Shown here: positions 1 to 61,574 of the stretch, piece by piece
How the letters are laid out: the number at the start of each line of letters is the position of its first letter
Numbering within the stretch: position 1 is the stretch's first letter
From: an uncultured virus (IMG/VR IMGVR_UViG_3300041964_000089)
Lineage: Duplodnaviria; Heunggongvirae; Uroviricota; Caudoviricetes
Virus record (IMG/VR): IMGVR_UViG_3300041964_000089
Length of the DNA stretch: 64,000 nt
Direction: 5' to 3' (one strand)
Made by a program: the position numbers and the translations under genes
Notes under the pieces: generated by a model
What the model was told of the DNA's origin: nothing
The model's input: the letters and a program-made list of their open reading frames with translations, nothing else
The model's database searches: none

Positions 1-76
1 ATTGCTTTTTGGGTAATTGTTTGAATTTGCAACGATCGGCTAGGCAGTAATTAACCGTCTAGCCGTGGACTAACTA

Positions 77-742
77 CTAGCTAGCGGACGGTAGGGCCGG
101 AACGTTTAACACATCATTAGTAGCGGCAAATGCTTGCTGAGAATAAGCGTTGCCACTCATAATGTAAGCAGTCTCCTCTTGTGTGAGGTTGTCCAGACAC
201 TGCATCCCTTTTGTGCTTTCAAAATCAATCATTCGAGCTTGATTCGTCGGACTAGAGATGACCGCAGCCGCTTGCTCCAGAATTGAAAAATCTTTTCTTT
301 CTTCCCAAGTCCAAATAAGTGCATAGTAATTGCCCTTATCGTTTGTGAACTTTTTAAAGGTTGGAGTGAAAATGCCTGTAGCGGGTTCAACGCCACGAGA
401 TTGTACTTCTGTCACCAAACGATTAAAATCTCGCAAGGATTGAGTCTTGATATGCGTGACCATCACAACGCCTTTGGGCAAGTCGCCAGACTCGGCAACA
501 AACCAAATCTGACCCCACAATGTCTGATCGGTTTTACCGAGAGAACCGAAATATTTGGAAAATTTAAGGATGGTCATTGAACACTTGGAGCCGTAGTCTG
601 TGTCACCGATCGCCCACTGCCCGGACTGGCAATTGTTGCGAACTGCTATCGGAATTTCGGGAACTAACAGGGCATCAGCAGCTTTTGAGCCAAATACTGA
701 AAACGTGGCGGGGCGTTGTTGGTTTTCTGTTTGCTTAGTCAT
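77..742 (-). CDS. Hypothetical protein, possibly ssDNA-binding/recombination-associated
   Basis: 221-aa ORF, beta-rich with aromatic residues, in the early region; function is a guess. Confidence 0.5.
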   Translation of the reverse strand: MTKQTENQQRPATFSVFGSKAADALLVPEIPIAVRNNCQSGQWAIGDTDYGSKCSMTILKFSKYFGSLGKTDQTLWGQIWFVAESGDLPKGVVMVTHIKTQSLRDFNRLVTEVQSRGVEPATGIFTPTFKKFTNDKGNYYALIWTWEERKDFSILEQAAAVISSPTNQARMIDFESTKGMQCLDNLTQEETAYIMSGNAYSQQAFAATNDVLNVPALPSAS

Positions 743-830
743 GATGGTATTAAGTTGAGTTTGATTGATTTAGTTTGGTTTTGGGTTTTGCCTGCCCTTA
801 TAAGGCTCCCGCTGGCACTGAGCCGACTTA

Positions 831-2966
831 TTACTTCGGGCAAGTTACACTTTGTCTTGCAAGCTGGTGTTGCTGAGCCATTTTATCTAGGTAGCCGATC
901 GCAATTTCTTTTGAGAAAAATGGATGACCAGTGCCAGTCTGACTCCAAATAGACCATGCCCACCAGCGCCCATCTTGGCCTTGTTTGATACGACCAATTC
1001 CGTTGTAATTTTCTGTTTCTCGCGCAAAACAGGCATACTGTTGGTACATTCTGGGATTGAAAGTGCGTCCGGCTTCAATAGCTGCTCTGATTTGTTGATG
1101 CCGCACGTTGGGGTGCTTAGTTTCTGACGCTGTGAATCCGGCATTGATAACAATGAAAATTTCATCGTTGCGGATGTAGAATTGGCGGATTGCACCCTTC
1201 TTGCCTACGATCGTCCCTTTGATCGGCGTCTGCCAGTGAATAGTCCCTTCTGGCTCGATTTCGGTGACTGGCTGCTCGTCCAAATTTTCGTCATGAGTGG
1301 GCAGAATAGATGGATCAAAAGCTGTGATTTTGAACAGCTTGAGCGTGTCGGCTTTCAGTTCTGTCATTTTCTCTAATTGAACTGCGGGGAAAAGTTGAGG
1401 TTCAGACTTGGGGCGATGGTAATACTCAATAGCTTTGTCGATTTTTTCAAGGTGCAGCAACGTGATCACTTCATCTTCGCTTCCCATTGCTGTTCGCTCA
1501 ACTGCTAGCTGAGCCTTGAGTTGGCATTCGGACAAATATGCTAAGTCGTAAAATTGCTTGTCAAGCGCACTTTCTTTGACCATTGCACTTATAAAATTGT
1601 CATCCTGTTTTGCTTGCCGTATTGGCGCGGTGGAAACAGGAGTGGAAGCCGTCAGAGTGGAGGTTGCAGAGATCCGACCGCGACCGTTGTCGCCACGATT
1701 TGGGGGTGCGTCGTCGTTGGTTGTAGTATTTGTTTTTTTCGGTTGGGTAATGGGTAATAAATCAGGTAGAGATTTTTGGTACTCCCCGATCTCTGTCATC
1801 ATTTCAAAGTACCACCAACTCGGTTGGGGATTTTTAGCGAAATTTTTAGCTTCATCAAGGACAGATCGTATGCGTTCGGCAATCGCATGAATGCTGTCGT
1901 GCATTGTTACGTTAGTCCCAATATCGGCTTGGCAACCCTCGGTAGCCCAGACATATTTTGCTCGTGGAGCGTAATTCCAGTAGTCTTTACCATTCTCCAA
2001 CTCGTGGAAAATAAACGGACACTCTGCGGCGATAATGAACTCCAAGCATTCTGTTGCGTCCAATTTGCTAGCGTTTTTAATAACTTCGGCGTAAATTGCC
2101 GATGGGTTGATAAGTTGCAGGTAAGCGTCAAATTGCCAGCATTCAATAGTTGGAAGTTGCTCGCCACCATAAACTTTGTAACCTTGCTGCGCCAGCCAAA
2201 ATTGCTCTTTATATTCGTTGGCGCGATCGCGGGTAGTGCTAGCAATACAGCACGGTACTGACTGCTTTTCGGAGAAAGCGACATATTTAGGCAGAGGCAA
2301 ATTGAAGAAAAAAGGCATTGCGCGTTTGGCTGGGGCAATCGGCGCTTCAACCTGAATTTTACTAGGGGTCACGGTAGCAGAAACTGGAATTTCAGCAGAA
2401 GCAATCAATTCAGTCATCTCGGTTTCAAGATCAGCTATTTCTTGGTAACAATCGGTCTCAGCTTCCCAGTGGCCGCAAGTCACGGCGTCGGTCAGTCCGC
2501 AGCAGTAGCGATCGCCGTCAATGTGACGAGCCAAGGGGCAGGTGGCGCAAGTGAGCGGGGTTGCGATTTGTTCCGTTTCAACTACGGGCTGCGGTTGTGC
2601 AGCAATGATGCGGTTTTCGTAGTCCCAGCGCGTGCGGGATAATGCTGTTGCTTTCAAACCGAGGCTGGTGTGCAGTTTTTGGATTTGGTTCCAAGTTAAG
2701 GTTTTGAGCGTTTCAGCGGTGTGTGCCGATGCGCTGGCTGCTGGTGCTGCAACTTCTCCAACCACCCATTCTTCTGTGTGGCGATCGCGGCAGTTCGGGA
2801 AAGTCACGATCAAGCAGGTGCGGCCGTCTTTCAGGATTTCCTTGCCGACCACGCAGGCGATCGGAGCGAACGGTTTGCGGATTACATCTCCCACTTGGCA
2901 TTTAGGTGTGGCATCTTGCCAGATTACTTGGGCGGGGGTTTGGGGTTTGAGGGCTGTGAGTGTCAT
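831..2966 (-). CDS. Large multi-domain hypothetical early protein
   Basis: Long ORF; ATG at 2966 (MTLTALK) preferred as start; contains a CxxC...CC...C cluster. Confidence 0.7.
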   Translation of the reverse strand: MTLTALKPQTPAQVIWQDATPKCQVGDVIRKPFAPIACVVGKEILKDGRTCLIVTFPNCRDRHTEEWVVGEVAAPAASASAHTAETLKTLTWNQIQKLHTSLGLKATALSRTRWDYENRIIAAQPQPVVETEQIATPLTCATCPLARHIDGDRYCCGLTDAVTCGHWEAETDCYQEIADLETEMTELIASAEIPVSATVTPSKIQVEAPIAPAKRAMPFFFNLPLPKYVAFSEKQSVPCCIASTTRDRANEYKEQFWLAQQGYKVYGGEQLPTIECWQFDAYLQLINPSAIYAEVIKNASKLDATECLEFIIAAECPFIFHELENGKDYWNYAPRAKYVWATEGCQADIGTNVTMHDSIHAIAERIRSVLDEAKNFAKNPQPSWWYFEMMTEIGEYQKSLPDLLPITQPKKTNTTTNDDAPPNRGDNGRGRISATSTLTASTPVSTAPIRQAKQDDNFISAMVKESALDKQFYDLAYLSECQLKAQLAVERTAMGSEDEVITLLHLEKIDKAIEYYHRPKSEPQLFPAVQLEKMTELKADTLKLFKITAFDPSILPTHDENLDEQPVTEIEPEGTIHWQTPIKGTIVGKKGAIRQFYIRNDEIFIVINAGFTASETKHPNVRHQQIRAAIEAGRTFNPRMYQQYACFARETENYNGIGRIKQGQDGRWWAWSIWSQTGTGHPFFSKEIAIGYLDKMAQQHQLARQSVTCPK

Positions 2967-3096
2967 AATAAGGTTGTCTCTTTTGAGTTTTGGCTCTTTT
3001 GGGATGCCCCTTTTTAAGGGGAGCGGTACGCGGGCGGTCTGCACTTTGTTTTCCAGACAGGGGTGTAGGCCGCCTTTGCTATATCTTTATACTAAA

Positions 3097-3177
3097 TCAA
3101 GTGATGGCTGATTGCAATAGCTGTGTCATCACTTGATTTTATGATAGCAGCTAAAACAGATAAGAACAAGTGATGAC
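3097..3177. promoter_or_regulatory. Operator-like repeats CAAGTGATG(A/G)C between divergent genes
   Basis: Copies at 3097-3108 (+), 3125-3136 (-) and 3166-3177 (+), upstream of an RHH gene. Confidence 0.6.
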
Positions 3178-3248
3178 ACTGTGATACTTTCTGATGACGC
3201 TTGTTAGTATAATGACATCAAAGTCACATAATACTGAGGTACGCCAAA

Positions 3249-3473
3249 ATGATTGCAACAGAAATGAAAGGGCAAAGATTCACATTTACTATTGAGCCTG
3301 ATTTATATGAATCGCTAAAAATACAGGCGAAGCGAGAGCGCAGGTCTATTGGCTCTTTGCTTAACTGGCTTGTTGCAGAATATCTGGAAGAACAGCAAGG
3401 GTTGCAAATTCAACCAACTATTCAACACGGAGGTGATCGCAAATCTGATAAACGGAGTTCTGATAATGATTGA
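3249..3473 (+). CDS. Ribbon-helix-helix (CopG/Arc-like) regulator
   Basis: QRFTFTIEPDLYESLKIQAKRERRSIGSLLNWLVAEYL fits the RHH pattern. Confidence 0.75.
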   Translation: MIATEMKGQRFTFTIEPDLYESLKIQAKRERRSIGSLLNWLVAEYLEEQQGLQIQPTIQHGGDRKSDKRSSDND

Positions 3474-4023
3474 TCCCAAATTAATTAACTTGTCTGCGTT
3501 GCCGTCCGTTTCATTAGGTAATCGCAAACACTTGCCACAAACAGCGGGCATCTATCTGGCGATCAACGCTGCTGAAACGGTGCAGTACATTGGGCGATCG
3601 ATTAATTTGCGCCAGCGATGGTCAAGCCATCATCAGTTATCTGCCTTGGACATTATTGGCGTCCGGATTGCTTGGCTTGAGATTAGCGAGTCAAGCTTGC
3701 TTCCACAAATCGAACAAGCGTTGATCGAACAAGCGTTGATTGAATATTTTAACCCTCCGTTCAACGTTGGGTGTTGTCCGCCCAAATTCGTAAAGTCGTC
3801 TGACAGACCCGCAGTAAAACATTCCACTGTCAAAATTCGTTGTTGGCTGCAAGAGCTGCTTGATGAAAAAGAAATGACTCGGAGCGCACTGAGCTTGCAA
3901 ACCGGGTTAACCAGTGCTGCTATTCGCGGACTTTGTGAAAATACCGCTAAGCGTTACGACGTAAGCACTTTAGCGGTACTTTTTAGCTGCAAAGAAGACA
4001 AACATAACCTAACTAATCAATAA
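3466..4023 (+). CDS. GIY-YIG nuclease-like domain fused to a Cro/C1-type HTH
   Basis: GIYLAI...YIGRSINLRQRW..H; C-terminal LQELLDEKEMTRSALSLQTGLT; 15-nt tandem duplication (IEQALIEQAL). Confidence 0.75.
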   Translation: MIDPKLINLSALPSVSLGNRKHLPQTAGIYLAINAAETVQYIGRSINLRQRWSSHHQLSALDIIGVRIAWLEISESSLLPQIEQALIEQALIEYFNPPFNVGCCPPKFVKSSDRPAVKHSTVKIRCWLQELLDEKEMTRSALSLQTGLTSAAIRGLCENTAKRYDVSTLAVLFSCKEDKHNLTNQ

Positions 4024-4028
4024 GAAAA

Positions 4029-4343
4029 ATGAACAACCAATCCAATCAGCTAAACGAATCAAATGTTTCCCAAACTACCACCACTTTTTTTTACGACTCT
4101 CGTGACTTCAATGTGGAAGATGTACAAAAAAGTGCAGATTGGGACAAAATAAGTGCTTGTTTGCAAATGGGGTTAACCGTTGTGATTCACTGTAGCAAGC
4201 AAGACAAATCACCAATAAAAATAACCTTTTTGAGTTCATTCGACTCTAAGGAAATTGCAAACGATTACGCAACTGATATAAGCATAGGTTCTGACGAGTC
4301 AGCGTGGGTAGATATTGTCTGGCCCGAAAATTACCAAGTTTAA
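4029..4343 (+). CDS. Hypothetical protein
   Basis: 104-aa ORF in operon context. Confidence 0.55.
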   Translation: MNNQSNQLNESNVSQTTTTFFYDSRDFNVEDVQKSADWDKISACLQMGLTVVIHCSKQDKSPIKITFLSSFDSKEIANDYATDISIGSDESAWVDIVWPENYQV

Positions 4344-4370
4344 GAACTTCAATTTGCTCTTGCTTCGTGA

Positions 4371-4574
4371 TCACCATTTTTGATCTTCATTGGCAAATCG
4401 TGCCAAAACAAGCGCCAAAAACAAACCAGCAACGCATGAACCGAGCAAAATCAGGGCATTAGCCCCCTCAATCTGGGTAGAGCGTTTGCCGACAATAGGT
4501 GCACCGCAATGAGGACAAGCCGCAGCGGTGGTAGCAACTTTAGCTTTGCATTCGGAGCAATTAATTAGAGCCAT
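4371..4574 (-). CDS. Zinc-ribbon membrane protein
   Basis: MALINCSEC...CPHCGAP followed by a hydrophobic TM segment. Confidence 0.7.
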   Translation of the reverse strand: MALINCSECKAKVATTAAACPHCGAPIVGKRSTQIEGANALILLGSCVAGLFLALVLARFANEDQKW

Positions 4575-4626
4575 AAGGTTTTCTCAGGAAATTTATCTTT
4601 CAGTTTCTCAAACAAAGGAGTCAGTC

Positions 4627-4893
4627 ATGAGTAACGTTTTGTCAGTTTTAAATTTTGAAAGCCAAGAAATCCGCTTGTGTGGTTCTGCTGAAAATCCTGA
4701 GTGGGTCGCCGCTGATGTAGGGGCTGTTTTAGGGATTGGTCAAAGTACGCTGTCGGAGCGTGTGAGCAAGTTGCCTGAAAGTTGGAAGGGCATCGGTTCA
4801 ATAGATACCCTTGGCGGCCAACAGCAAATGCTGACCGTGACCGAGCCGGGACTGTACGAGTTGATTTTCCGAGCTGATTCTATTGCAATGTAA
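4627..4893 (+). pseudogene. Truncated BRO-N antirepressor-like gene
   Basis: FESQEIR...PEWVAADV...TLGGQQQMLTVTEPGLYELIFR, then an abrupt stop before the usual end of the domain. Confidence 0.7.
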
Positions 4894-5286
4894 GGTTTAC
4901 AGACATTATTTCCACTCGTTTTAAGCCAAAAAAATCGCTGCACCTTTGAGAGAGGCACAGCAAAACAATTAATTAAAGTTAATTTCAATATACCGTACTT
5001 TTTACTGTTGTCAGCAGTTGTCGGCAAGTTGCAGACAGACAGTGGATAGAGTACAGCCTCTCTTAAATATAGGTGTAGCGCGCAACCTTTACGGAGACTT
5101 ACGCGCTATGACACCCATTCTACCAGCCTCGGACGGATTTGGTCAACCTTCGGTAAGTTTAGATAACTTTAGCGAAGATTTGACAAGTTTAAGTAAGTTT
5201 ACACCAAAACCACAAACCCCTCTAAATACGCAAGATAACCGTGGATTATTTGGAGCCGCCTTTGGAGCGATCGGAGGGTTGGTCTA

Positions 5287-5892
5287 ATGGTTTACTCACA
5301 ATCATCTCATCAGCCGATAAACTGCGAACAAGTCCGACAACAGTTGGCAGCATTGGGTTACAAAGCGGGCGACACTGTGTACCTGCGGGCCTTCTACCCT
5401 GACTCAGACCCCAGAAAAACAAAAGATGCGGGTCGGAAAGCGGAATCAACCAAACTCGACCAATTGATTAAACACGCTACCACATTTCAAGCCGAAGGCC
5501 GGGGCATTTACCTCGTAGTAAACGGCGGTGGACACAAGGACAGAGATGTGACCCAAGCACGGGCCATCTTCTACGAGCACGACAACTCAGGAAATTACCT
5601 GCGGGCGATCGGTCAACAATTCAACGGCGACCCTCGGCAATTGTTGGAGGAATTCGCGGCCCGATGTAACCCACCACTACCAAAGCGCGAAACAGAGACT
5701 GTGTGGAAGTCCGCAGAGTGCGACAACCCCTCACCAGCTTGTAAAAGTGAAGGGGTAGATAATTGCATCCGTGGCTGGTACTGGAATAATTACGCAAAAA
5801 AAACAAGTGGGAAGGCGATCGGTCACTCAAACAACATAATCACACACCCGCGCTTCACACCTCCTGACCCTGCAGGTTTACGCGAACACTAG
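5287..5892 (+). pseudogene. Internally deleted cyanobacterial plasmid/phage primase remnant
   Basis: GIYLVVNGGGHKD...RAIFYEHDN primase N-terminus joined directly to a PriCT-like segment (ARCNPPL...VWKSA), then ends. Confidence 0.6.
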
Positions 5893-5941
5893 GACATAAA
5901 GGGGCCCCATCCAGACAAAACAGATGGGGCGATCGGGCCTG

Positions 5942-6214
5942 CTAGAGGTTAAATTTCTTCACAGCTTGGGCAAACAATGTCGTTGCGATCGTCCGCGCAT
6001 CTTCGCCGCCACCTTCGGCTAGGTTCTTAGTGACAGTCACTCGCTGGCAGTAGCCGTAGAGGTCGCCTAATTGGTCGATGTAGCTGGCCACTGCTTTTTT
6101 CTCGTCAGCGGATAGAGCCGTAAAGGCGATCGCCTTCTCATTGCCTCGGACAAACCCGCAGCACAGCGGTTCCGAGTTTGGGTATTTGAGGAAGTGCTGC
6201 CAAGCATCCGCCAA
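5942..6214 (-). CDS. Hypothetical protein or gene fragment
   Basis: 90-aa ORF ending near the hairpin GCCCCATC/GATGGGGC at about 5903-5930. Confidence 0.4.
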   Translation of the reverse strand: MADAWQHFLKYPNSEPLCCGFVRGNEKAIAFTALSADEKKAVASYIDQLGDLYGYCQRVTVTKNLAEGGGEDARTIATTLFAQAVKKFNL

Positions 6215-10594: not shown

Positions 10595-10705
10595 TGGACG
10601 TTGATCGAATCGAACGATCAAGTTTTCCGGTCAACAGTAGTTGCGTCACGGGGTCTCAACTCCCATCTTTAACAGTGCATCTCCGGGACTGGTCCCGCCA
10701 CGTCC
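10595..10705 (-). ncRNA. tRNA-like RNA with expanded central domain
   Basis: GGACGT/ACGTCC-A acceptor stem, perfect T-arm GATCG-TTCGATT-CGATC, non-canonical middle. Confidence 0.55.
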
Positions 10706-10710
10706 AAAAA

Positions 10711-10777
10711 GCGACTATTGCTTACACGCAATTTCACTGGGTCAAAATTCAGCGCCAGTGCTGCCCCGGTTCGTCGC
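10711..10777 (-). ncRNA. Candidate multibranch structured RNA
   Basis: GCGAC/GTCGC closing stem with CACTGG/CCAGTG and ATTGC/GCAAT arms. Confidence 0.35.
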
Positions 10778-10810
10778 TAATCTGATAATAACCTATTGGC
10801 AACCAGAAAG

Positions 10811-11104
10811 TTAACGTACTGTGCTAGCTGTGCTAGCTGTGCTAGGTGGAAACAAATCGCGGTAACTCATCCCCACACGTTCGCAAGACACTGCAAAGTT
10901 GGCTAAATTCCTGACTTCTTGAATTTTTCGCAATATTGTTGTTAATTCTGCGGGGTTTGTAATAATGCCAGCTAGCGCTTTTGCATATGTGATCGAAGCT
11001 TCATTGACTATTGCGTGCAGTTCTTGCTCGGCGTCATTTTTGGGTGGATGGTAAGAAAATAAATTTTCAAGTTTTTCTAAAAACTCAGTATTTTCTATTG
11101 GCAT
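10811..11104 (-). CDS. Acb2/Tad1-like helical-hairpin protein (putative nucleotide-signal sponge)
   Basis: LENLFSYHPP...E.....RKIQEVRNLANFAV resembles the F.YH.P...KLEEA.MWAN.AIA family pattern. Confidence 0.6.
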   Translation of the reverse strand: MPIENTEFLEKLENLFSYHPPKNDAEQELHAIVNEASITYAKALAGIITNPAELTTILRKIQEVRNLANFAVSCERVGMSYRDLFPPSTASTASTVR

Positions 11105-11295
11105 ACGATTGTGATCTCTCTATTTAGACATTAAAATTATAATTGATTATGTCTTGATCGCCCCCAAATTTCCTGAATTATTGAGGTCGTAAACGTGCTA
11201 CAATAAAAGCACTAAAAAGTCTAGACCGCAAAAAATTAAATTTTTGCATCTTAGATGTATAGCCCAAAGCCATTACCAAGCAAAGTTGTAATCTG

Positions 11296-11381
11296 TGGGG
11301 ATGGTGGGGCTCGAATCCACAAAACCCTGGCAGGTTGTCCGGTTAGCAGCCGGATGCGTTTTCCAGTTCCGCCACATTCCC
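11296..11381 (-). tRNA. tRNA with GCT (Ser) anticodon on a Leu-type body
   Basis: GGGAATG..CATCCCC-A; anticodon arm TCCGG CTGCTAA CCGGA; long variable arm; mismatches at 4:69 and 53:61. Confidence 0.75.
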
Positions 11382-11456
11382 AAGTAAAATGCAGCGGCGA
11401 TACTTTGAATTAGGACCTCAAAGCATCGTCGCTTATTCTACATTTTTTGCAAAATG

Positions 11457-11966
11457 TCATTTATTGTAAAAATGTTCAACTATTCTAACTGGAAGCGCAC
11501 AAGTACTAGAAAGTTTACAGGAAACTTCTGCCGCCTCTTTAGCTGTTTTGCCTAACAACAACGCTGCTTGTGCAAAATCACCGCCACTGCCGATCGCATC
11601 AAAATTTTCAACTTTGTAAACATCAATTCCACCGTAAACACGAAACAACTGGTCTTGAAACGCAATTAAAAATTGAGACGTTGGCATTCCAACATTATAT
11701 TTCGACTGACAAAGGTTAACATACTCTATTAAAAATTCAATCATTCCATCTTCACAAGCACTTTTTGGAACATGAGTTTTAGCAAAAATTCTCATTAAAG
11801 TATTAAACAAACACTGTCCTGAATGACCTACTGTCAAATCGTTTTGCTGCCAAAGTTTAGAGACAAGCGTATTGTTATCAGTAATAATTGTGTTATCTGC
11901 TGTCATTAAAGAATCACGAGCAAAAACAATTTTGTTGTCGGTTTTAATGGCTGCAATTACTGTCAT
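11457..11966 (-). CDS. HslV/proteasome-beta-like Ntn protease
   Basis: N-terminal (M)T, ARDS, SK and AIGSG motifs. Confidence 0.75.
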   Translation of the reverse strand: MTVIAAIKTDNKIVFARDSLMTADNTIITDNNTLVSKLWQQNDLTVGHSGQCLFNTLMRIFAKTHVPKSACEDGMIEFLIEYVNLCQSKYNVGMPTSQFLIAFQDQLFRVYGGIDVYKVENFDAIGSGGDFAQAALLLGKTAKEAAEVSCKLSSTCALPVRIVEHFYNK

Positions 11967-12016
11967 ACATTTGCGTGTTGTAAACTACTATTTAATACTA
12001 ACAAGTTTTTACTCAT

Positions 12017-12406
12017 TTAAAATATTTTTACAATTAAAATAATAATTAAACCAATCAACGCGATCGCACCCAACACATAACAACTGTTGAGCGCCCAGCA
12101 TTTATCCAACAAGCAAGCTTTGGCATACGGCACAACCCACCACTCAAAATCAAACCACTCTGTACCACCATCAATTTTACCCCGATACTTTCTCACCAAT
12201 TCAAACTGTTTGTGCAGGGACTGTTCTACAAACAGCATATTGAACGTCCAAGCAACTTGCAACAGTTTTAGCTGAGTGCCGTAGGATTGTTTGAGGTATC
12301 GCAGTCGGGTTGCAGGCGATCGGGATAAGCCTATTTTGTAAAGTTGCGCGGCGGGGTCGTAAATTAGGTAGACGTATCCTGGAACGGCGTGATTGTGTTT
12401 TTGCAT
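12017..12406 (-). CDS. GIY-YIG (T5orf172/Mug113-like) protein with C-terminal TM helix
   Basis: GYVYLI...YKIGLS..P..RL...E..LH..F...GGTEWF. Confidence 0.8.
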   Translation of the reverse strand: MQKHNHAVPGYVYLIYDPAAQLYKIGLSRSPATRLRYLKQSYGTQLKLLQVAWTFNMLFVEQSLHKQFELVRKYRGKIDGGTEWFDFEWWVVPYAKACLLDKCWALNSCYVLGAIALIGLIIILIVKIF

Positions 12407-12601
12407 GACCTAATTTTATTTACCTCTACTTTGTTTTTCACGTTGGAACTTTTCGGCTTTCCACCCCGCCCTAGCATAAGGATGAATTAAATCTTCTTTC
12501 TTGCCACCCCAAGCATAATGATACTGCCCTTTTGTAAATTCAAAGTCTTGTTCTGGTGTCATAATTTAGTTAAACTTCAATTTCTGATTTATTTCATCAA
12601 A

Positions 12602-12868
12602 CTATTCTTTTCCGTAGTGGCTATATAGCAGTTCTTTAGCCTTGGTGGTCAGCTTGTATTGTTTCTCGCTAACTTCTTCTACCAATCCCGCTTGCACCAA
12701 GTTTGGATGCCGGTGCGTTGTGGTAACAGCATCCCAAGAATTTTGCTCAATACATTTGGTTAGTAGCCAAGTAAGCATCGACTCGCATTCGCTAGTATGA
12801 GACAAGCCCAATCCAGCTAGCATTCCAAAAGGGTTTTGTTTACGTGTGTTAAAGTCTTGTGGTTTCAT
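12602..12868 (-). CDS. Hypothetical protein (winged-helix-like)
   Basis: LVQAGLVEE...YKLTTKAKELL. Confidence 0.5.
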   Translation of the reverse strand: MKPQDFNTRKQNPFGMLAGLGLSHTSECESMLTWLLTKCIEQNSWDAVTTTHRHPNLVQAGLVEEVSEKQYKLTTKAKELLYSHYGKE

Positions 12869-12900
12869 GGCGATTCTCTAATTAATTTTTGCGTAACGAA

Positions 12901-14379
12901 TTAAACTTCAATTTCTAATTTACTTCTAACTTGATATTGGATATTGTAAGCATCTAACACTTTGTGAAGGCGTTTTCGTGCTTTTACCCATTTTTGATTG
13001 TCGCCGGGACGCGCTTTGTAAACGCGGTTGCAAATGTGGCGCTGGTTTTGCATTTTGTCAACCAGCCACAGCTTTAAAATCCAGTTTCGCTCAGTGGTTG
13101 ATATGTCTCCTTTGAGTGCAATCGCGTTTAATGGCTCGTTCATGGTTTGCAGAAAATTTTGGAAGGTTTCCAAAGGTTCGCTGAGCACGTCAACTTCCTT
13201 GGGCATCACGTATTGAGCGAGCGCGACAGCGTTAGTACGATCAACTGCATCACCCATCCCAACACTTACGGTACGCTCTTCAACCCTTCCAGAGATTGTG
13301 GCCCAAGCATCAGGCGTAACTACAAACTGCATCGCCCCATGCGTGATTGTGAGCGTAATTTTGGTGGAAACGCCCAGTTTTTGCTGTACTAGTCCCAGGT
13401 AAGGTCGCACCTTAGCTTCTGAGTAATCAATTCTCAATCTCACAAAAATTCGACCATCTTCGTGGGAATACGCGCCTTTATAAGAAGAAGTGATGCCCTG
13501 CGATCGCAGCACGTCCCGAATAGTCCGAGCAACAATCGTGCTTTGCTCTATGTCATCAGGGAATGTTTCTTGAAGTTCCTCAATTGTCACCAACGCATTT
13601 TGCAGTTCAGATTCTAATTGCTCAATCCGTCCTTTTAAACGCTCTACTTTCTCGTGGTGGCTTTGCAAAAAATCTAATTTAAACTTTTCAAACTCAGCTT
13701 CGCGCAAATGGCAAATTTCTTCAAACTGCGCCTTTTCAGCATCGTAATACTCTTGGATTTCCTGAGCTTTTTCTTCTTGTAAAGTTTCTAATTGAGCTAT
13801 CAACTCAGCCTCGCGCTGCAATAAAGCTTGTTCCCGCGCAGCCAATTCGGCATTTTGCTGTTCGCAGTATTGGTCAAATTGAATTTGCTGGCGATCGGCA
13901 AAAGTAGAAACTTCTGCAAGTTTTTGAGCTTTTAGATTTTCTAACTCCGCCCTTAGCTCATTTTCGTCTTCGCTGACAGCTTGTTCTCGCGAGGTGATTT
14001 CAGCTTCACGTTCTGAAAGAACCATACGTTCAGCACTCAACAAAGCGTCAATGCGCTGCCGGGAAAGTTCTTCCTGCAATCCGAGAGTTTCTTCAATCGA
14101 AACTAACTCAGCTTGCCGGATGCTGATAATTTCTTCTATCCCCGCGACTTGTTCTTCTAAAGTTTTAATTGATTGATTAAGGTTTTTCCATACCTCAAAA
14201 AACCTCGGCGACATTTGGAGGTAAACCAGCCCCAATAAAAACCCTCCGGCTTCGGCAATTACACTGGCATTGCCGAGAAGCACTCTGGATGCCACTACGC
14301 CACCAAAACTAGCAATAGCTAGTGCATACCGAAGGGTTTTCTTAAGCAGCTTCCTCCATTTAATAGGAGGTAATTTCAT
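12901..14379 (-). CDS. Membrane-anchored coiled-coil protein
   Basis: Two N-terminal TM segments and a long E/Q-rich coiled coil. Confidence 0.7.
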   Translation of the reverse strand: MKLPPIKWRKLLKKTLRYALAIASFGGVVASRVLLGNASVIAEAGGFLLGLVYLQMSPRFFEVWKNLNQSIKTLEEQVAGIEEIISIRQAELVSIEETLGLQEELSRQRIDALLSAERMVLSEREAEITSREQAVSEDENELRAELENLKAQKLAEVSTFADRQQIQFDQYCEQQNAELAAREQALLQREAELIAQLETLQEEKAQEIQEYYDAEKAQFEEICHLREAEFEKFKLDFLQSHHEKVERLKGRIEQLESELQNALVTIEELQETFPDDIEQSTIVARTIRDVLRSQGITSSYKGAYSHEDGRIFVRLRIDYSEAKVRPYLGLVQQKLGVSTKITLTITHGAMQFVVTPDAWATISGRVEERTVSVGMGDAVDRTNAVALAQYVMPKEVDVLSEPLETFQNFLQTMNEPLNAIALKGDISTTERNWILKLWLVDKMQNQRHICNRVYKARPGDNQKWVKARKRLHKVLDAYNIQYQVRSKLEIEV

Positions 14380-14561
14380 CTACGTCTCCACTTGTTGGTA
14401 ACAAAAGTGGCTGCAAAGGCAATAACAGCCGCAGTAAACCAAATTACTAAGCTATTGCTTGTAAATTTTTGCTTGGAAAGCACCAGCGAAAAATTTATAA
14501 TCCTGGGCGCTAGATGCGCTGCTAATACCCCGCAGATAAAGAAATAAAGCTGCTTTTGCAT
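14376..14561 (-). CDS. Small membrane protein
   Basis: Two hydrophobic segments; start/stop coupled to neighbours. Confidence 0.55.
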   Translation of the reverse strand: MQKQLYFFICGVLAAHLAPRIINFSLVLSKQKFTSNSLVIWFTAAVIAFAATFVTNKWRRR

Positions 14562-14562
14562 C

Positions 14563-14946
14563 TTAGACCTCGACGGGGATGCGCGGGCTAGATTTGATGC
14601 TGTTGGCAGCAGCCGATCGGAAAGAATCGCTTGCGCTGGTAGTTCCGTTTACCTTTAGGTTTTTGATTTTGAGCTGAAGCTGTTGACCTTGACCTTTTAG
14701 TACACCCATCGATCGGGTGAAGCTCAAGTCGGTTTGGGCGATCGCTTCGACTTCAAGAGCAATTTCGTGCCGGATAGAAGCCGTGTCGCGCTTAACTTCC
14801 TGAGTGTCCGCCTTGATCTTCTGGGTTTCTTCCCAGGCTTTTGCACCGCGCTCCTTGTGTTTCCAGCCTGCTTTCGTGTGGTTTTGCACCACTTTTTTGC
14901 TGGCTGCAATTTCTGTTTCGTAAGCTAAATCGGTCGTTAAACTCAT
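14563..14946 (-). CDS. Hypothetical protein
   Basis: 127-aa ORF with GAGG RBS. Confidence 0.55.
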   Translation of the reverse strand: MSLTTDLAYETEIAASKKVVQNHTKAGWKHKERGAKAWEETQKIKADTQEVKRDTASIRHEIALEVEAIAQTDLSFTRSMGVLKGQGQQLQLKIKNLKVNGTTSASDSFRSAAANSIKSSPRIPVEV

Positions 14947-15064
14947 AATTGTGTTCCTCTTATTGATTGGTTCAGTTACAAGCCCAGAAACTGGCTCGAA
15001 CCAGCTTGTTTCTACTTTTTAGGGCAATTATCTCAGGCGTCAGTAGACTAGCCTCCTAATTAAA

Positions 15065-15388
15065 TTAATGCCCAAGAATTCGCTTGCAGTACGCCGCAGT
15101 TTCTCTTTTTGTAGTAGACATATCTCCTTGTAACTGAACAAGGTCTGACTTTACCCGATCAAGCTGGTAGTTCTGCTGACTTGCGCCTAAAATTGTACCA
15201 ATACCCAAACCTGCAACTCCACAAATTCCACCAATAACAAGTGCTGTTTTTAGCGCCGTAGGTTGTTGTTGATGAGGCTTAAAAGTTGTTCCTATCGCAG
15301 GCGTTCCAGTTTCCAAATTGATAATATGTTGAGGTTGACTATCAATACTTATTGTGATTGAATGTTTTTGGTCTAAATATTGCTGCAT
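15065..15388 (-). CDS. Single-TM hypothetical protein
   Basis: Gly-rich TM segment followed by a coiled coil. Confidence 0.55.
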   Translation of the reverse strand: MQQYLDQKHSITISIDSQPQHIINLETGTPAIGTTFKPHQQQPTALKTALVIGGICGVAGLGIGTILGASQQNYQLDRVKSDLVQLQGDMSTTKRETAAYCKRILGH

Positions 15389-15678
15389 TTTTTATCGTTC
15401 TCCAATAATTCAATCCAAAGATGCCCATCTAAAATCGCCATGTGCTCAGTCGGACTGATGCCATGACAAAGCGCGTTGTCAGATTCATCTCTTACTTTCC
15501 ATTCCCATTTCTCGGTCTTAGAAACAATTATTGTGAATCCTTGGGGAATAAAAACCTCTGGATGGGTCGAAGTTATTTGCCTCCAGTATTTGCGTCTAAA
15601 CAGTATCTGCGCGCAAATATTAATTATGTTTTGCAAAGTTTTTGTGGATAGCGAACCAAATAAAATTTTTAACATCAC
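15373..15678 (-). CDS. Hypothetical protein
   Basis: 101-aa ORF in operon context. Confidence 0.5.
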   Translation of the reverse strand: MMLKILFGSLSTKTLQNIINICAQILFRRKYWRQITSTHPEVFIPQGFTIIVSKTEKWEWKVRDESDNALCHGISPTEHMAILDGHLWIELLENDKKCSNI

Positions 15679-15868
15679 ACAATCCCTGCCATTTGATAAA
15701 CGCTTTCGAGGTCAATTTTGTAGTTAATTGGTGATCGAAACAAACTTTTAACCCATCCCCACATCTGCTTTTCTCCTGTTGTTGATGACTTAGACACTTT
15801 CAATATCAATTCCGCAATTTGTCGATTGCTAAGCTGGCTTAATAACTCGGGCAAAAGTGTTTCAGGAG

Positions 15869-16507
15869 CTAAAGTTTGACTCCGAGATTCTTGAGCGCAG
15901 CGTAGGCATCCAGTGGCGTGGCAGCCCCCGTTTGTACTGTTTGCGCGTATGTCTGCGAGGATAGTTGCGAGTTTGTCAAAAAATCATCACCCGCGCTGTC
16001 TTTGAAGAGTTCGTTGAGCCGATCGCGCGATTCTTGGCCTTTCTGAAACACAGCATCCCGAACAAGCATTGCACCCTCCCTCTCCTTGGTGGCGCGAACA
16101 AGCTCTTTCACGACACCAACACGCAATCCATCGTCAGCGGCTTGCTGAATCTCCGTTTCCAATATGTGAGCTTGCTGGTTTTCGGATGCCGCCATCGCGT
16201 TTGAGAGCGCGGTCTGTTTCTGTTCGGCAATTCCAAGCTCTTGTTTTTCTGACTTGGCTAAAATTTCTGGAGATTGCTCGATCGCACCGTCACTCTCTAC
16301 TTGATTTGTCGGTTCGGATTTGGGTATTTCAATTGCGGGCTGTAATTGATGCCTAGAATTTTGAGCAAACTCTTGCTTGATAGCCTTTACCTGTTCCGTT
16401 GAAAATATCGTTTTAAACCCTACATTTTTAATACTCAACTGAACAGCCAACCGCAACACTTCAGCATCTGAAATTTGTAATTCAAGAGCTAATTGCTTAA
16501 GTTTCAT
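15869..16507 (-). CDS. Hypothetical protein with IF2_N-like N-terminal HTH
   Basis: MKLKQLALELQISDAEVLRLAVQLSI; start chosen after GGAGG. Confidence 0.55.
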   Translation of the reverse strand: MKLKQLALELQISDAEVLRLAVQLSIKNVGFKTIFSTEQVKAIKQEFAQNSRHQLQPAIEIPKSEPTNQVESDGAIEQSPEILAKSEKQELGIAEQKQTALSNAMAASENQQAHILETEIQQAADDGLRVGVVKELVRATKEREGAMLVRDAVFQKGQESRDRLNELFKDSAGDDFLTNSQLSSQTYAQTVQTGAATPLDAYAALKNLGVKL

Positions 16508-16890
16508 TTTTTGTTGACCTCCTTGTAAAAACAACTGTGAGTAAGATTATCGGCATTAATAATTAAATGCTGCTTTAGCTCTTCTATCAAAGGTTTGGGT
16601 TTGCGAGACATAAAGTTTTTTATGTACTTCAAAACCCACATTTGATGGTGGTTCCAGGAGGTTCCCGGAATTAATACCGCTTCGCCCGTACCGGGGTCAA
16701 ATAAATAATTGGAAAGTTTTTGACCGTCTGTTTCGGCGTAAATTTCAATTATTAATTCTTCCCATTCGTAAGCAGTTTGCCTGCAAACCTTGAGGTGCTG
16801 TTCGATAAAGTATTTTCGAGTCCACCCCGTTATGCGTTCGCGGGCTTTTTGCGACCTTAACGTGCAAATTTCAGGGGTTACTGTTGGCAT
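16504..16890 (-). CDS. Hypothetical HTH-like protein
   Basis: HLKVCRQTAYEWE. Confidence 0.5.
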   Translation of the reverse strand: MPTVTPEICTLRSQKARERITGWTRKYFIEQHLKVCRQTAYEWEELIIEIYAETDGQKLSNYLFDPGTGEAVLIPGTSWNHHQMWVLKYIKNFMSRKPKPLIEELKQHLIINADNLTHSCFYKEVNKK

Positions 16891-17104
16891 TTTCCCACCT
16901 GTCGCTTCCCGGAACAGGGCTGCTGCAAATATTCCAAAAACTGGTATAGCCTCTGATTTTTGAGTCTTCAGTCAACCGGGCGATCGCATCAGCTTGCGAC
17001 AAGGCCGGTACCTGAAGCACAAAAACTGATTCAAATCGTTCTACCTGAATTGGGTACAGTTGCAACATTTTGACCTCCAGTAGACAAGTTTCTAAACACC
17101 TCAA
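16871..17104 (-). CDS. Hypothetical protein
   Basis: Short ORF, likely starting MLQLYP after GGAGG. Confidence 0.45.
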   Translation of the reverse strand: MRCLETCLLEVKMLQLYPIQVERFESVFVLQVPALSQADAIARLTEDSKIRGYTSFWNICSSPVPGSDRWENANSNP

Positions 17105-17130
17105 ACGCTTGTAATACAGTCGATTTGAGC

Positions 17131-17194
17131 TATCAGACTAGACAGGCACTGACTAGACGTAACTCGTGTCTGGCGACCTCTGTCTAGTCTGATA
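17131..17194. promoter_or_regulatory. 15-bp inverted repeat (operator or hairpin) heading the leftward operon
   Basis: TATCAGACTAGACAG...CTGTCTAGTCTGATA with an internal GACTAGAC copy. Confidence 0.55.
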
Positions 17195-17261
17195 AACCAA
17201 CAATAAACCCCTCGCTTGGAGGGGTCAACGATAAAAAATCGTTATTTTAAAAATGTCTGCC

Positions 17262-17585
17262 TCAAAAGCCGTAATCTCTTTCCCACTCGCGTTTTAAAGT
17301 AGCAGCCCTGATTCTTGCTTGCCTTGAAAACTTCTGCCTCTCTTTCCACTTTTGAATTGTGCTGACCTGCCAACCAAAACTGATAGCGAATTGTTCGAGG
17401 CTCCAATTGAAACGGTTTTGAGCCTTGAAAAGAAGTTCTACGGGGTCAAATTCCTCTGGTTCCACAACCGGAGGGGTTAGGCCCTCTAATTTATGCGAAT
17501 TAGCTGATATATTAGTCATATCGTTGTTCTCCGTGCCTGGATTGAATAATGGTCGGCCCCGAGTGTTTGCTTCACTGCGGGGCAT
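17262..17585 (-). CDS. Cro-like HTH protein
   Basis: WSLEQFAISFGWQVSTIQKWKE. Confidence 0.65.
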   Translation of the reverse strand: MPRSEANTRGRPLFNPGTENNDMTNISANSHKLEGLTPPVVEPEEFDPVELLFKAQNRFNWSLEQFAISFGWQVSTIQKWKERQKFSRQARIRAATLKREWERDYGF

Positions 17586-17594
17586 TTCAATGGA

Positions 17595-17861
17595 TTATTG
17601 ACTCAAACTAGCTTTGGGCGTAGTCCGAAATTCCAAATCATCAATATGAACAAATTCTTGAGACAAAATTGTTATTAAAAAAGAAAAATTGTCTTCACCT
17701 ATGTCCCTTGCCACTAAAAGTTGGGGAATAGGAATCCCTTTAAGCCAAATAGCCAAAGAGCCATCTGTTTTAACTGTCCATACTGCAACTTGCTCAATGT
17801 TGATCGCGAAACAAGGAGATATATCTTCTCTACAGCGAGCGTACTCAAATCTAATTTTCAC
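17595..17861 (-). CDS. Hypothetical protein
   Basis: GTG start overlapping the upstream stop (GTGA). Confidence 0.5.
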   Translation of the reverse strand: MKIRFEYARCREDISPCFAINIEQVAVWTVKTDGSLAIWLKGIPIPQLLVARDIGEDNFSFLITILSQEFVHIDDLEFRTTPKASLSQ

Positions 17862-25992: not shown

Positions 25993-26280
25993 ATGACAAT
26001 GAATTTAGAAATTGAACAATTAACCCGCCGCGTCGAAACACTCGAAACAATTATTAGAAACTATGGGTTAATGCAAGAATTTCAACCGCTGAAACTGGCG
26101 GCTGTGGCGCTTAAGCAATCTGAGGCAAAACTTAGAAAAGCTGTGAATGCTGCTAGGTTAAACCCGCGCAGCCATCAAGCTAAAATTGGGGTGCATTTCA
26201 ATTTTAACGGCAACCGAATATTGATTAATGTAGTGGCGTGGGAGAGGGATATTAAAGCAATCCCTCCTGAAAAAGTTTAG
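25993..26280 (+). CDS. Probable excisionase/recombination directionality factor
   Basis: Small basic HTH-like protein convergent on and overlapping the integrase stop. Confidence 0.5.
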   Translation: MTMNLEIEQLTRRVETLETIIRNYGLMQEFQPLKLAAVALKQSEAKLRKAVNAARLNPRSHQAKIGVHFNFNGNRILINVVAWERDIKAIPPEKV

Positions 26281-27347
26281 TGTCGGGTTGCCCGCTTCCA
26301 AGCTTCCTCAAAATCGCGCTTGCTGATATGTTGGTGATATTTGTCAAAATGAATTGTGAGTGAATGCCCCATCCACCGAGCAACAATTGCCGGATCGATT
26401 CCGAGCACAGATCCGCGAACGGCGTAAGCATCGCGCAAGTGGTAAGCGGTCAAATCAATACTTTGTGCCCGCAAACCGGGAGTAATTTTTGCACCAATGT
26501 TTTGGTTGGTTCTGCCTTCAGTTTGCGTGTTTGGTAAAACCCCATCCCAAAGTTGCCATTCCGATCGCCACTTTGGCATCAGCGGCAAAATCAACCGCTC
26601 CTTAGTTTTAGTGTTTGGCAACACTCGCAGCCAGCCTGGTTCGGCGTTTAACTCAGAGCAATCAAGTTTGAAAATTTCGTGAGGTCTAAGGCCGTAAGCG
26701 GCCAGCATTCCAAAAACCCACTGCCAAGCGGGGTTGCCGATCGATTCGCGCATCGCTTCAATTTCCAAATCTGACGGCAAATCCCGCTGAATTTTTGCCC
26801 CGCACCCCGCAGCTAACTCTGAAAATTTATTCTCAATTCCTGCAAATCTGGCGATCGCCCCGTAAGCAAAGCACAATTTTTGCCTGGTGCGGGTTCCCGG
26901 CTGCGATTTTAAAATTTCAGTTTTTAGCAATTCTTCTGTCAGCGGTTTGCTCGGATCGAGCCGATCAAACGCTTCTTGATACGAGGCTTTCCACGTCGAG
27001 ATTTTTGCCAGCGATCGCTCCCGCGACTCCCAATAGTTTTGCTCAAACCGAGCTACCCACTCACCTACAGTCTCCGCAGGTTTGTGCTTCCCTTTGAGCC
27101 AAGGGGTCCAGTCAAACTTTTCTCGGATTAGCTGCCCTTCAATTTCCAGGGCTTTAGCTTTGGCAAATCTTAATCCTTCAGTATGAGCGCCGTACCCGGT
27201 ACTCAATTCGTAGCGTTTGGGCTTGTCCCCGTCGCCCGGTTTTGGCGGCAAAGTCGCTCGCAGATACAGCCGATCGCCTTTCTGTCGGATTTGCACGCGA
27301 TCGAGCGCAGCGTTTGCTTTCCCCAGTGCTTCCCCAAAATTGTGCAT
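26277..27347 (-). CDS. int: Tyrosine integrase
   Basis: YGLRPHE, KTK, YHLRDAYA, MGHS...H..KY; N-terminal arm-binding region LYLRATLPPKPG. Confidence 0.92.
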   Translation of the reverse strand: MHNFGEALGKANAALDRVQIRQKGDRLYLRATLPPKPGDGDKPKRYELSTGYGAHTEGLRFAKAKALEIEGQLIREKFDWTPWLKGKHKPAETVGEWVARFEQNYWESRERSLAKISTWKASYQEAFDRLDPSKPLTEELLKTEILKSQPGTRTRQKLCFAYGAIARFAGIENKFSELAAGCGAKIQRDLPSDLEIEAMRESIGNPAWQWVFGMLAAYGLRPHEIFKLDCSELNAEPGWLRVLPNTKTKERLILPLMPKWRSEWQLWDGVLPNTQTEGRTNQNIGAKITPGLRAQSIDLTAYHLRDAYAVRGSVLGIDPAIVARWMGHSLTIHFDKYHQHISKRDFEEAWKRATRH

Positions 27348-27441
27348 AAGATATATCAAAATAACCAAGATATCTTGGTATATCTTATTCAACGGGTAAA
27401 AGTAAAATTAGTCAAAAACTTGTTGAAAGCCTTACTTAGAA

Positions 27442-27513
27442 CGGAGAGGGAGGGATTTGAACCCTCGAAGGATGTTAACACCCTTAACAGATTAGCAATC
27501 TGCCGCTTTCGAC
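27442..27513 (-). other. attP core: 3' part of tRNA-Ser(GCT)
   Basis: GTCGAAAGCGGCAGATTGCTAATCTGTT...GAGGGTTCAAATCCCTCCCTCTCCG; lacks the 5' acceptor/D strand; directly upstream of int. Confidence 0.85.
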
Positions 27514-56558: not shown

Positions 56559-56565
56559 AATATTT

Positions 56566-56862
56566 ATGACTCCCCACCGCCTAAAAGTTCGCGCCGCTAT
56601 GCGACGCTACGGACAATCGCAATCGCCCAGTCAAATTCAAAATACTTTGGTGCAAACCGGGACTTTATCAGCCGATCGGCTGACACCCGCTGCCGAGGTT
56701 GGCAAATTCCAACAATTCAACGCCGAAGCGGGACGCTACGTGTTTGCCAGCAGCACCCAATCCGTACAAGTAGCGCCTTCTCAGATTCTCTCAAACGGTC
56801 GGCTTGGCGTAGGGCAAAAAGTCCTCTTGGCTCAAGGAACAGCTGATTTTATACCCGCGTAA
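56566..56862 (+). CDS. Small tail-tip protein
   Basis: FNAEAG...LSNG..GQKV shared with the N-terminus of the next gene. Confidence 0.55.
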   Translation: MTPHRLKVRAAMRRYGQSQSPSQIQNTLVQTGTLSADRLTPAAEVGKFQQFNAEAGRYVFASSTQSVQVAPSQILSNGRLGVGQKVLLAQGTADFIPA

Positions 56863-56865
56863 GCT

Positions 56866-61114: not shown

Positions 61115-61268
61115 ATTTTAATTTGTAATATTTTTTAGACACTTTGACGGCTGATTCACAAGGCAAAAGCTGGACTAAAGAAACGGGACTATTAGGTAAA
61201 TTGAATGGCAATATCAGGGTGAACGTACAACCCGCCCCGTTTCTTTAGATCTGAGGCCGAGGAAATAG

Positions 61269-61418
61269 CTATTTTTTCTTTTCTAACTCTGCCAATTCTT
61301 CCGGGCTTAAAACTATTTCCTCGGCCTCAGATTGAGTTTTTGTTTGTTTGGTTTGTCCGCTTGGCAAAGAATCGTCTGATGACGTTGATTGATTTTTTTC
61401 AGTTTCATGGTTAGACAT
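61269..61418 (-). CDS. Small peptide (49 aa), possibly extended to 61192 by a -1 shift
   Basis: MSNHETEKNQ...EEIVLSPEELAELEKKK*; not in the ORF track. Confidence 0.45.
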   Translation of the reverse strand: MSNHETEKNQSTSSDDSLPSGQTKQTKTQSEAEEIVLSPEELAELEKKK

Positions 61419-61574
61419 TCGAGCACCCTTTAATAGAATTATAATTTAAGGACTTAGCCAAGAGCCAACAGAGCGTTTAACTGTCTAGGGTCTTTTTATC
61501 TCTTGCTGGTCTATTATAATTGTAAGTGTATTTTGCCCAACAGTCGCGTCAAGCGCTCGCTGTCATCTACCCGT

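Follow-up and report, generated by a model that had tools for sequence, protein, structure and literature searches.

We find that the single tRNA gene of the window, that is, of the whole 64,000-nucleotide stretch of viral DNA analysed here, is probably a host tRNA with a CCU anticodon that was captured by the phage, mutated in this phage strain and is now decaying or nearly silent. Judging from the gene sequences, we give this reading a probability of about 0.7. The GCU anticodon of the phage copy is not a conserved trait, since the anticodon is CCU (Arg, AGG) in all nine full-length relatives, found in eight cyanobacterial genomes (at least three of them Microcoleus) and one metagenome contig. 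The initial annotation had seen the gene as a possible missense tRNA inserting Leu at AGY codons. As an evolved phage trait this idea is not supported, because GCU occurs in 0/9 full-length relatives and AGY codons still align with Ser, but it stays viable one step earlier, for AGG codons read by the CCU parent.

In the history that we propose, a temperate phage of Microcoleus-like cyanobacteria would have acquired 243 bp of a host mobile cassette, comprising a hairpin and a Leu-bodied tRNA(CCU). The phage copy would then have gained the changes C34G, G4A, G53A and U60C, and is probably poorly folded or charged. Residual charging, if any, would be by LeuRS (A73, A15:U48, A20a) and/or ArgRS (A20, C35, U36), not by SerRS. 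A charged copy would place Leu or Arg at the Ser codons AGY, which would be costly, and this cost would favour crippling changes in the stems.

Table 1. Features of the window discussed in the text, with positions and strand
Feature	Position	Strand	Remarks
Downstream gene	10811..11104	-	phrog_1454, function unassigned; start 192 nt past the tRNA
Block shared with host	11191..11433	-	243 bp: hairpin, tRNA and 105 bp downstream; 89-93% identity with Microcoleaceae chromosomes
tRNA gene, class II	11296..11381	-	7/5 cloverleaf, Leu-like body, anticodon GCU, CCA not encoded
C60, T loop	11309	-	U60 in 9/9 relatives
A53	11316	-	G53 in 8/9 relatives, A also in G440; T-stem closing pair 53:61 broken
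Anticodon G34 C35 U36	11345..11347	-	11347 is the C34-to-G change relative to 9/9 relatives
A20	11362	-	main ArgRS determinant; A in 8/9 relatives, U in G719, C/U in 23/23 sampled Leu tRNAs
A4	11378	-	G4 in 9/9 relatives; acceptor pair 4:69 broken
Hairpin	11393..11433	-	16 pairs, 7-nt loop (11410-11416) copying the CCU anticodon loop; 12 nt upstream of the tRNA
Sigma-70-like match, weak	11442..11470	-	9/12, consensus match only; upstream of the hairpin
HslV-family peptidase-like gene	11457..11966	-	phrog_1040, E 2e-18; directly upstream of tRNA/hairpin
Integrase	26277..27392	-	phrog_1, E 1e-9; adjoins the attP fragment
attP-type fragment	27440..27513	-	identical over 74 bases to the G004 chromosomal Ser(GCU) gene (3' part)

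Fold and identity elements of the phage tRNA

ARAGORN reports one tRNA in the window, c[11295,11381], with anticodon GCT, and Rfam RF00005 matches 11296-11381(-) with 47.4 bits (E 5e-7; gathering 29). The acceptor and T stems are in the 7/5 arrangement, neither 8/4 nor 9/3, the variable arm has 17 nt (17-19 nt when the relatives are included), and the anticodon loop reads CU-GCU-AA. G18, G19, U54, U55, C56 and A58 are all in place, yet the pairs 4:69 in the acceptor stem and 53:61 in the T stem are A:C, where the relatives are mostly intact (G4:C69 in 9/9, G53:C61 in 8/9). On parsing, the D arm, A15, U48, A73, the long variable arm and the anticodon loop were all recovered as the initial annotation had described them, and the two stem mismatches that it mentioned could be located at A4:C69 and A53:C61. 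When forced into the cloverleaf, the phage copy has an energy of -21.8 kcal/mol, compared to -32.5 kcal/mol for the CCU parent, that is, about 11 kcal/mol is lost, and its Rfam score of 47.4 bits compares to 60.2 bits for the parent. Minimum-free-energy folding was left out, as it fails to recover the cloverleaf for either of the two. The anticodon stem, D arm and variable arm are unaltered in the phage copy.

To assign the body, we used our own position profiles rather than tRNAscan-SE, leaving out the anticodon loop and taking 23 Leu and 17 Ser long-arm genes as the basis. A misparsed Leu row (L043, CAG) was left out of the profile, and tRNAs without a GG anchor in the D loop (L006) were not scored. 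The window tRNA obtains +32.9 bits for Leu over Ser, where leave-one-out scoring gives +27 to +66 for Leu (n=23) and -1 to -100 for Ser (n=17); the Leu set is biased, several genes having been retrieved for their likeness to the query, and the nearness is thereby inflated. The proposal that the body is Leu-like and not Ser-like agrees with this score. A73, A15:U48 and A20a are present, and G18G19 is in the Leu register, with four nucleotides before the GG in the D loop (as in 17/23 Leu tRNAs) and four after it (23/23). A73 and A15:U48 had been put forward as Leu markers; they are indeed there, but their diagnostic power is weaker than claimed, because among the 17 sampled Ser tRNAs A15:U48 is found in seven and A73 in one, with G73 in 12. 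The Ser markers are absent, the window having A73 and G3-C70 while all 17 Ser tRNAs have A-U or U-A at 3:70. What the window does share with Ser tRNAs, namely G1-C72, G2-C71, the long variable arm and the anticodon, is weakly diagnostic (G2-C71 also occurs in 12/23 Leu).

It is important to point out that the initial annotation overlooked A20, the main ArgRS determinant. The window has A20 and A21, whereas all 23 Leu genes have C/U20 and G/U21, and A20 occurs in all five class I Arg tRNAs listed for the Microcoleus genome G004. In the excerpts of PMC9976931 drawn on here, the Arg identity set is given as A20, C35, U36 and A/G73, and the Leu set as A73, A15-U48, G18G19 and A20a, with G73 blocking LeuRS. 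The full Arg set is found in the window and in 8/9 relatives, G719 having U20 instead. The anticodon is non-Leu in both the window (GCU) and the nine relatives (CCU); GCU reads AGC/AGU and no Arg codon, whereas the CCU parent does read an Arg codon (AGG). The variable region of the window tRNA is long, unlike that of a class I Arg tRNA. If the phage copy is charged at all, these bases would make Arg as plausible as Leu. Very long variable regions were also seen in two tRNA-Arg(ACG) calls (27 nt in L036, 23 nt in L019).

The CCU relatives and their mobile cassette

When 185,579 species genomes were scanned with a pattern, six matched, and three Microcoleus genomes among them share an identical 86-nt gene reading CCU; the metagenome contig L014 adds a fourth case. 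The Microcoleus gene differs from the window at exactly four places, and relative to the consensus of the relatives the phage changes are C34G, G4A, G53A and U60C, two of which break stems. The initial annotation had allowed for a recent point mutation of a Leu anticodon; the mutation is found (C34G), but the parental anticodon is the Arg-type CCU. The tRNA was found in 7/144 genomes by a DNA search of the family, in 2/331 by a pattern search of the order (one of them new, G719) and, at high identity, in 1/401 genomes of a phylum sample. Pattern searches of viral_contigs, a set that may lack records close to the window, matched no member of the tRNA family, and BLAST of the locus against phages and plasmids gave only partial tRNA matches. 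All nine full-length relatives keep A73. Compensatory changes are seen in G506 at 3:70 and 31:39, with a G:U intermediate at 3:70 in G440 and L014. Covariation, which had been proposed as a check, is thus present as double changes at two pairs over seven distinct rows (G719 excluded), but it is statistically weak, as 33/500 shuffles score as high.

In the host genomes the tRNA is part of a cassette that starts with a winged-helix gene, continues with a hairpin whose loop is like a CCU anticodon loop and with the tRNA, and ends with a KilA-N gene. It is found in this order in 6-7 of 8 genomes, namely in the Microcoleus-type carriers and in G719; the G003 contig stops before the KilA-N position, and for G003 and G506 the context consists of the upstream gene only. 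The upstream coiled-coil/winged-helix protein is placed by Atlas near HARE-HTH (0.92) and Rok-like clusters, and its AlphaFold model has a long helix, a disordered linker and a winged helix. A Pfam search with this protein gave nothing over cut-off, a fold search with the winged-helix model gave nothing at E <= 0.001 (the best rows being winged helices, Z-alpha and Rok), and a scan of viral_contigs matched nothing. The KilA-N protein matches the PADLOC candidate PDC-S13 (E 2e-17), which we take as a lead only. In G719 the cassette is preceded by TnsB-, TnsC- and TniQ-like genes, and in G088 by two integrases. Elsewhere, homologs of the winged-helix gene are not followed by a tRNA, and on a Planktothrix plasmid the two genes lie back to back; as the two-gene module thus occurs without the tRNA, the RNA part is an insert in a two-gene mobile module.

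Two of these loci deserve a comment of their own. In G719 (L188:391-10871), the cassette comes after the TnsB/TnsC/TniQ-like genes and before a MerR-family gene and type I restriction-modification genes; the region as a whole looks like a Tn7-like element with defence cargo. In G088 (L150:1302-1402, minus strand), a hairpin and a different tRNA-like gene lie behind a winged-helix homolog and are followed by a PDC-S13-like gene. This tRNA-like gene scores 44.5 bits with Rfam and was missed by ARAGORN; it has a 26-nt variable arm, an option for eight acceptor pairs, and a loop centred on ACA, for which a triloop closure is possible.

The hairpin stems of G004, G506 and G719 are unrelated to each other, and each can show a loop Y-U-C-C-U-A-N like the anticodon loop of the tRNA; G506 has a second such hairpin, downstream of the tRNA. 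The folding z is -5.5 in the window, -7.2 in G004 and -6.8 in G506, and the loop 5-mer has a frequency in the window of 5 in 10,000 positions. In the phage, the first loop base is a private G and the loop still reads CCU, a mismatch with the GCU of its own tRNA. A stem that is wholly turned over around a loop that retains the anticodon of the tRNA points to a function of the anticodon loop outside decoding. Presumably the loop is also similar to the anti-Shine-Dalgarno sequence, a reading that suits the hairpin of G088 better than likeness to an anticodon does.

The CCU tRNA is accessory to its carriers. These also possess an ordinary Arg(CCU) gene of class I, which has a 242-259 nt intron in the 5/5 checked fully and of which the 5' half was found in the other three; this rules out that the long-arm gene is the sole CCU tRNA of the host. 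At L141-L145 and 14 further loci of the family, an insert of ca 210-305 nt interrupts the normal gene immediately 3' of the anticodon; ARAGORN calls this insert an intron, and we take it to be a group I intron. The Rfam search misses the split gene.

From the identity elements, which have been mapped mostly in E. coli, we read the CCU parent as an AGG-reading tRNA that would have two identities. The chances that it receives substantial charging with Leu appear about even. This is favoured by A73 in 9/9 copies, although G73 suits ArgRS and would exclude LeuRS, and by G719, which is without A20. Charging with Arg only is a possible but less probable case, favoured by A20 in 8/9 and by the Arg expected at the AGG codons of the cassette itself, and a role outside translation, as a decoy, appears more doubtful still. 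Charging of some members with Ser or Ala is left open by their bases, with Ser-like acceptor pairs in G506 and G719 (whose profile scores are only +13 and +8) and G3:U70 in two copies.

The phage copy and alternative explanations

The winged-helix and KilA-N genes that flank the host copies are absent from the 243-bp block of Table 1. In a tree of this block (243 columns), the window is nested among the host copies, on the longest branch. Since it nests there, and since the divergent members G506 and G719 have CCU, GCU is the derived state; we infer that the transfer took place from host to phage, and that the phage copy has lost function. The changes private to the window amount to 12 over the block, 3/86 in the tRNA and 9/157 in the flanks (p = 0.55), rates that would be compatible with relaxed selection in a test that is low in power. 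The host copies differ by 2.2% in the tRNA and 7.9% downstream (variable sites 5/86 vs 23/157, p = 0.057). Decay, which the initial annotation had kept as an alternative, is thus the better reading, given C34G together with the broken stems and CCU in 9/9 relatives. The copy need not be dead, as three arms are unaltered and G53A also occurs in the host copy G440.

Contigs with G4, G53, U60 and C34 at the locus are present in all four runs examined. In X3, a contig of a related phage that bears the HslV-like gene has G4, and its end overlaps the sole contig that covers the anticodon (C34, G53, U60); from this overlap, the related phage appears to keep CCU. Record 6 of X1, a divergent contig that differs at 11 letters (depth 3.8), does not show C34 but has G4, G53 and U60; it may be an intact-stemmed GCU relative. 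One X3 contig (depth 55) carries both flanks, 10848-11083 and 12011-12399, on opposite strands and without the tRNA/HslV-like segment.

We now turn to the codons. Columns with at least 70% agreement were taken from 116 primase and 106 terminase homologs, with the closest 4 and 14 listed matches omitted. At these columns, AGY aligns with Ser in 11/15 cases and with Leu or Arg in none, the TCN control giving 17/23, and AGG aligns with Arg at 5/5 conserved phage columns. As judged from these alignments, a reassignment of AGY is excluded, while low-level mistranslation would be compatible with them. AGY accounts for 374 of 14,447 phage codons (2.6%), and its share of Ser codons is the same in phage and host (p = 0.57). 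A code in which AGG means Leu was also considered, and is ruled out by the Arg at the five phage columns and at conserved positions of the cassette's own genes. A role in codon supply was rejected as well, AGG making up 11% of Arg codons in 40 phage ORFs and 9% in 30 host ORFs (p = 0.35).

To judge by its matches to integrase, terminase, tape measure, lysozyme and primase, the window is apparently a temperate phage. The Ser(GCT) fragment at attP with C48 and G73, described in the initial annotation, is confirmed by the 74-base identity to the gene of G004; as this is a Microcoleus genome with an attP-identical Ser(GCU) gene, it points to the host group. The further link drawn between the anticodon and this integration target is not supported, with CCU in all nine relatives and in the adjacent hairpin, and the match looks like a coincidence, produced by one C-to-G change. 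Relatives of the HslV-like gene occur in 10/144 family genomes at only ca 30% identity, and scans of viral_contigs with the HslV and integrase proteins found nothing. Sigma-70-like matches over 10900-12100 number 8, compared to 3.5 expected in shuffles. The idea that the tRNA serves as a processing signal for the next gene was discarded because of the distance to the start of that gene. Of the first 20 kb of the window, the nearest virus record (G001) covers 1-6175 only, and it is uninformative on the tRNA locus. Elsewhere in the window, a family 2 glycosyltransferase and a sulfotransferase adjoin the lysozyme gene (60299-62390), and two large adjacent ORFs of 880 and 923 aa without PHROG match follow the tape measure region (53916-59637). 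In G004, C113 at ca 11000-17800 holds a large tRNA array with short-arm Leu (CAA, CAG, UAG) and Tyr(AUA)-type genes, similar arrays being present in G003 and G005.

Against a decaying captured tRNA, several other explanations have to be weighed. The phage copy could be a live but dampened missense tRNA, with low-level insertion of Leu and/or Arg at AGC/AGU and a toxicity tuned by the stem mismatches. Every LeuRS and ArgRS determinant named in the excerpts of PMC9976931 is present as a base, and record 6 of X1 may be another non-C34 copy. A precedent for second-site dampening is found in yeast, where, according to the portions of PMC6827378 used here, second-site changes make lethal mistranslating tRNA-Ser variants tolerated. 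However, in the same portions the changes tolerated in yeast mostly lie in loops or create G:U pairs rather than A:C mismatches; moreover, the anticodon is GCU in none of the nine relatives, the related X3 phage appears to keep CCU, there is no AGY recoding signal, and the AGY share of Ser codons is equal in phage and host. We consider this scenario unlikely. A somewhat lower probability still is given to a decoy, in which a switch of the loop to GCU served to absorb a tRNA-Ser(GCU)-cutting nuclease or to substitute for the integration target. The phage does integrate at Ser(GCU), and the parent cassette repeats the CCU anticodon-like hairpin loop in three divergent lineages, which suggests a role of the loop apart from decoding. 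The adjoining hairpin is still CCU, however, the switch is confined to one strain, and the 74 identical bases of attP suffice to rebuild the host gene.

It seems very improbable that the gene is instead a functional phage tRNA-Ser(GCU) whose core is unusual and which SerRS charges. It has G1-C72 and G2-C71, the phage Ser(GCU) tRNAs L001-L003 share its Leu-like D arm and A15:U48, and G73 is described as dispensable for E. coli SerRS in vitro in the excerpts of PMC9976931. However, L001-L003 have G73 or U73 and A3-U70 or U3-A70 where the window has G3-C70, the profile gives +32.9 as opposed to the Ser range of -1 to -100, and the direct ancestor reads CCU. Finally, the four differences could be assembly or sequencing errors in a low-coverage contig, the depth being ca 5.5 and X2 having a near-identical phage strain without a contig across 11266-11385. 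In an independently assembled X1 contig (depth 5.5), the stretch 10619-12014 recurs with a single differing letter; since X1 is possibly the source sample, this speaks solely against an assembly slip. The four changes, clustered and accompanied by 12 private changes across the block, also look like divergence, and errors would be a most improbable cause.

Comparison with known systems

The flagged gene alone matters little, being a single-strain anticodon mutation in a captured tRNA. The host CCU family, in turn, is to judge by its genes a small, real and patchy family, and is neither nev-tRNA nor allo-tRNA. It is apparently undescribed, and a candidate natural mistranslating or decoy tRNA. 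A search of the full-text literature, with subscription journals largely outside its scope, found nothing on a bacterial Leu-bodied CCU tRNA or its cassette, and a survey of 61 cyanobacterial tRNA sets (PMC6933170) gives, in the excerpts consulted, Arg as class I only. With a LeuRS-ready body and a foreign anticodon, natural bacterial tRNAs of this kind would allow a clean test of the extent to which cells tolerate or exploit mistranslation. They would also show whether one substrate can serve both ArgRS and LeuRS, for which the G719 copy (U20, A73, CCU) and the Microcoleus copy (A20) form a natural pair.

The closest parallels are partial. In the passages of Hamashima et al. 2012 (PMC3333845) used here, the nematode nev-tRNAs are class II tRNAs of Leu origin with non-Leu anticodons, including Arg(CCU), that are aimed at rare codons, and the Gly and Ile forms are charged in vitro with Leu only. 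The CCU parent is similar in that its Leu-derived class II body bears an anticodon that is neither Leu nor Ser and is accompanied by an ordinary class I tRNA with that anticodon. However, the nev-tRNAs are eukaryotic and nematode-specific, whereas the CCU family is found in cyanobacteria and a phage, on mobile DNA, and has the ArgRS determinant A20 in most copies and a paired hairpin; the window copy, in addition, has a Ser anticodon. A tentative and rather doubtful extension is that the CCU parent would be a bacterial counterpart of the nev-tRNAs and the active RNA of a mobile cassette made up of winged-helix regulator, CCU-loop hairpin, tRNA(CCU) and PDC-S13-like KilA-N gene. As a switch for defence or stress, it might insert Leu at rare AGG codons on derepression, or its repeated CCU loops might detect or absorb nucleases targeting tRNA-Arg(CCU). 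The RNA part would be captured by phages, and the present strain would be an anticodon shift in progress.

The allo-tRNAs, in the excerpts of Mukai et al. 2017 (PMC5389517) and of a review (PMC7609411), are bacterial long-arm tRNAs in which identity and anticodon disagree, some having AGA/AGG anticodons; they are often near toxin-antitoxin or transposon genes, and many have stem-breaking mutations. The long arm, the conflict between identity and anticodon, the vicinity of mobile genes and the stem mutations are all shared with the present genes. However, allo-tRNAs have 8/4 or 9/3 stems and Ser or Ala identity in these excerpts, while the window and the CCU family have 7/5 stems and a Leu core.

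Other long-arm tRNAs with mixed features were also observed. The phage Ser(GCU) genes at L001:1453-1539, L002:1493-1580, L003 and L004:1847-1934 have a Leu-like D arm and A15:U48 (with G73/U73), except that one has G15:C48 but A73. The long-arm tRNA-Pro(UGG) genes of L009 (an uncultured Phycisphaeraceae) and L018, which are Leu-like by +72 and +56 bits and have C1-G72 and A73, would be further double-identity candidates.

Among ordinary tRNAs, bacterial tRNA-Leu(CAA) (Rfam RF00005) has the nearest body, with agreement at 0.76-0.82 of the compared positions, several of the genes having been chosen for likeness, and has A73, A15:U48, A20a and a 3-pair D stem; the differences are the anticodon and A20 (or U20) with A21. 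Phage long-arm tRNA-Asn(GUU) genes (L006:1479-1563, L110:2994-3077 and L019:597-685; the Caulobacter phage CcrColossus has an annotated tRNA-Asn) also have the Leu-like D arm, identical in L110, and the long variable arm, with A21 in CcrColossus, L006 and L110. In these, however, U1-A72 and G73 match Asn and block LeuRS, whereas the CCU family has A73 in 9/9.
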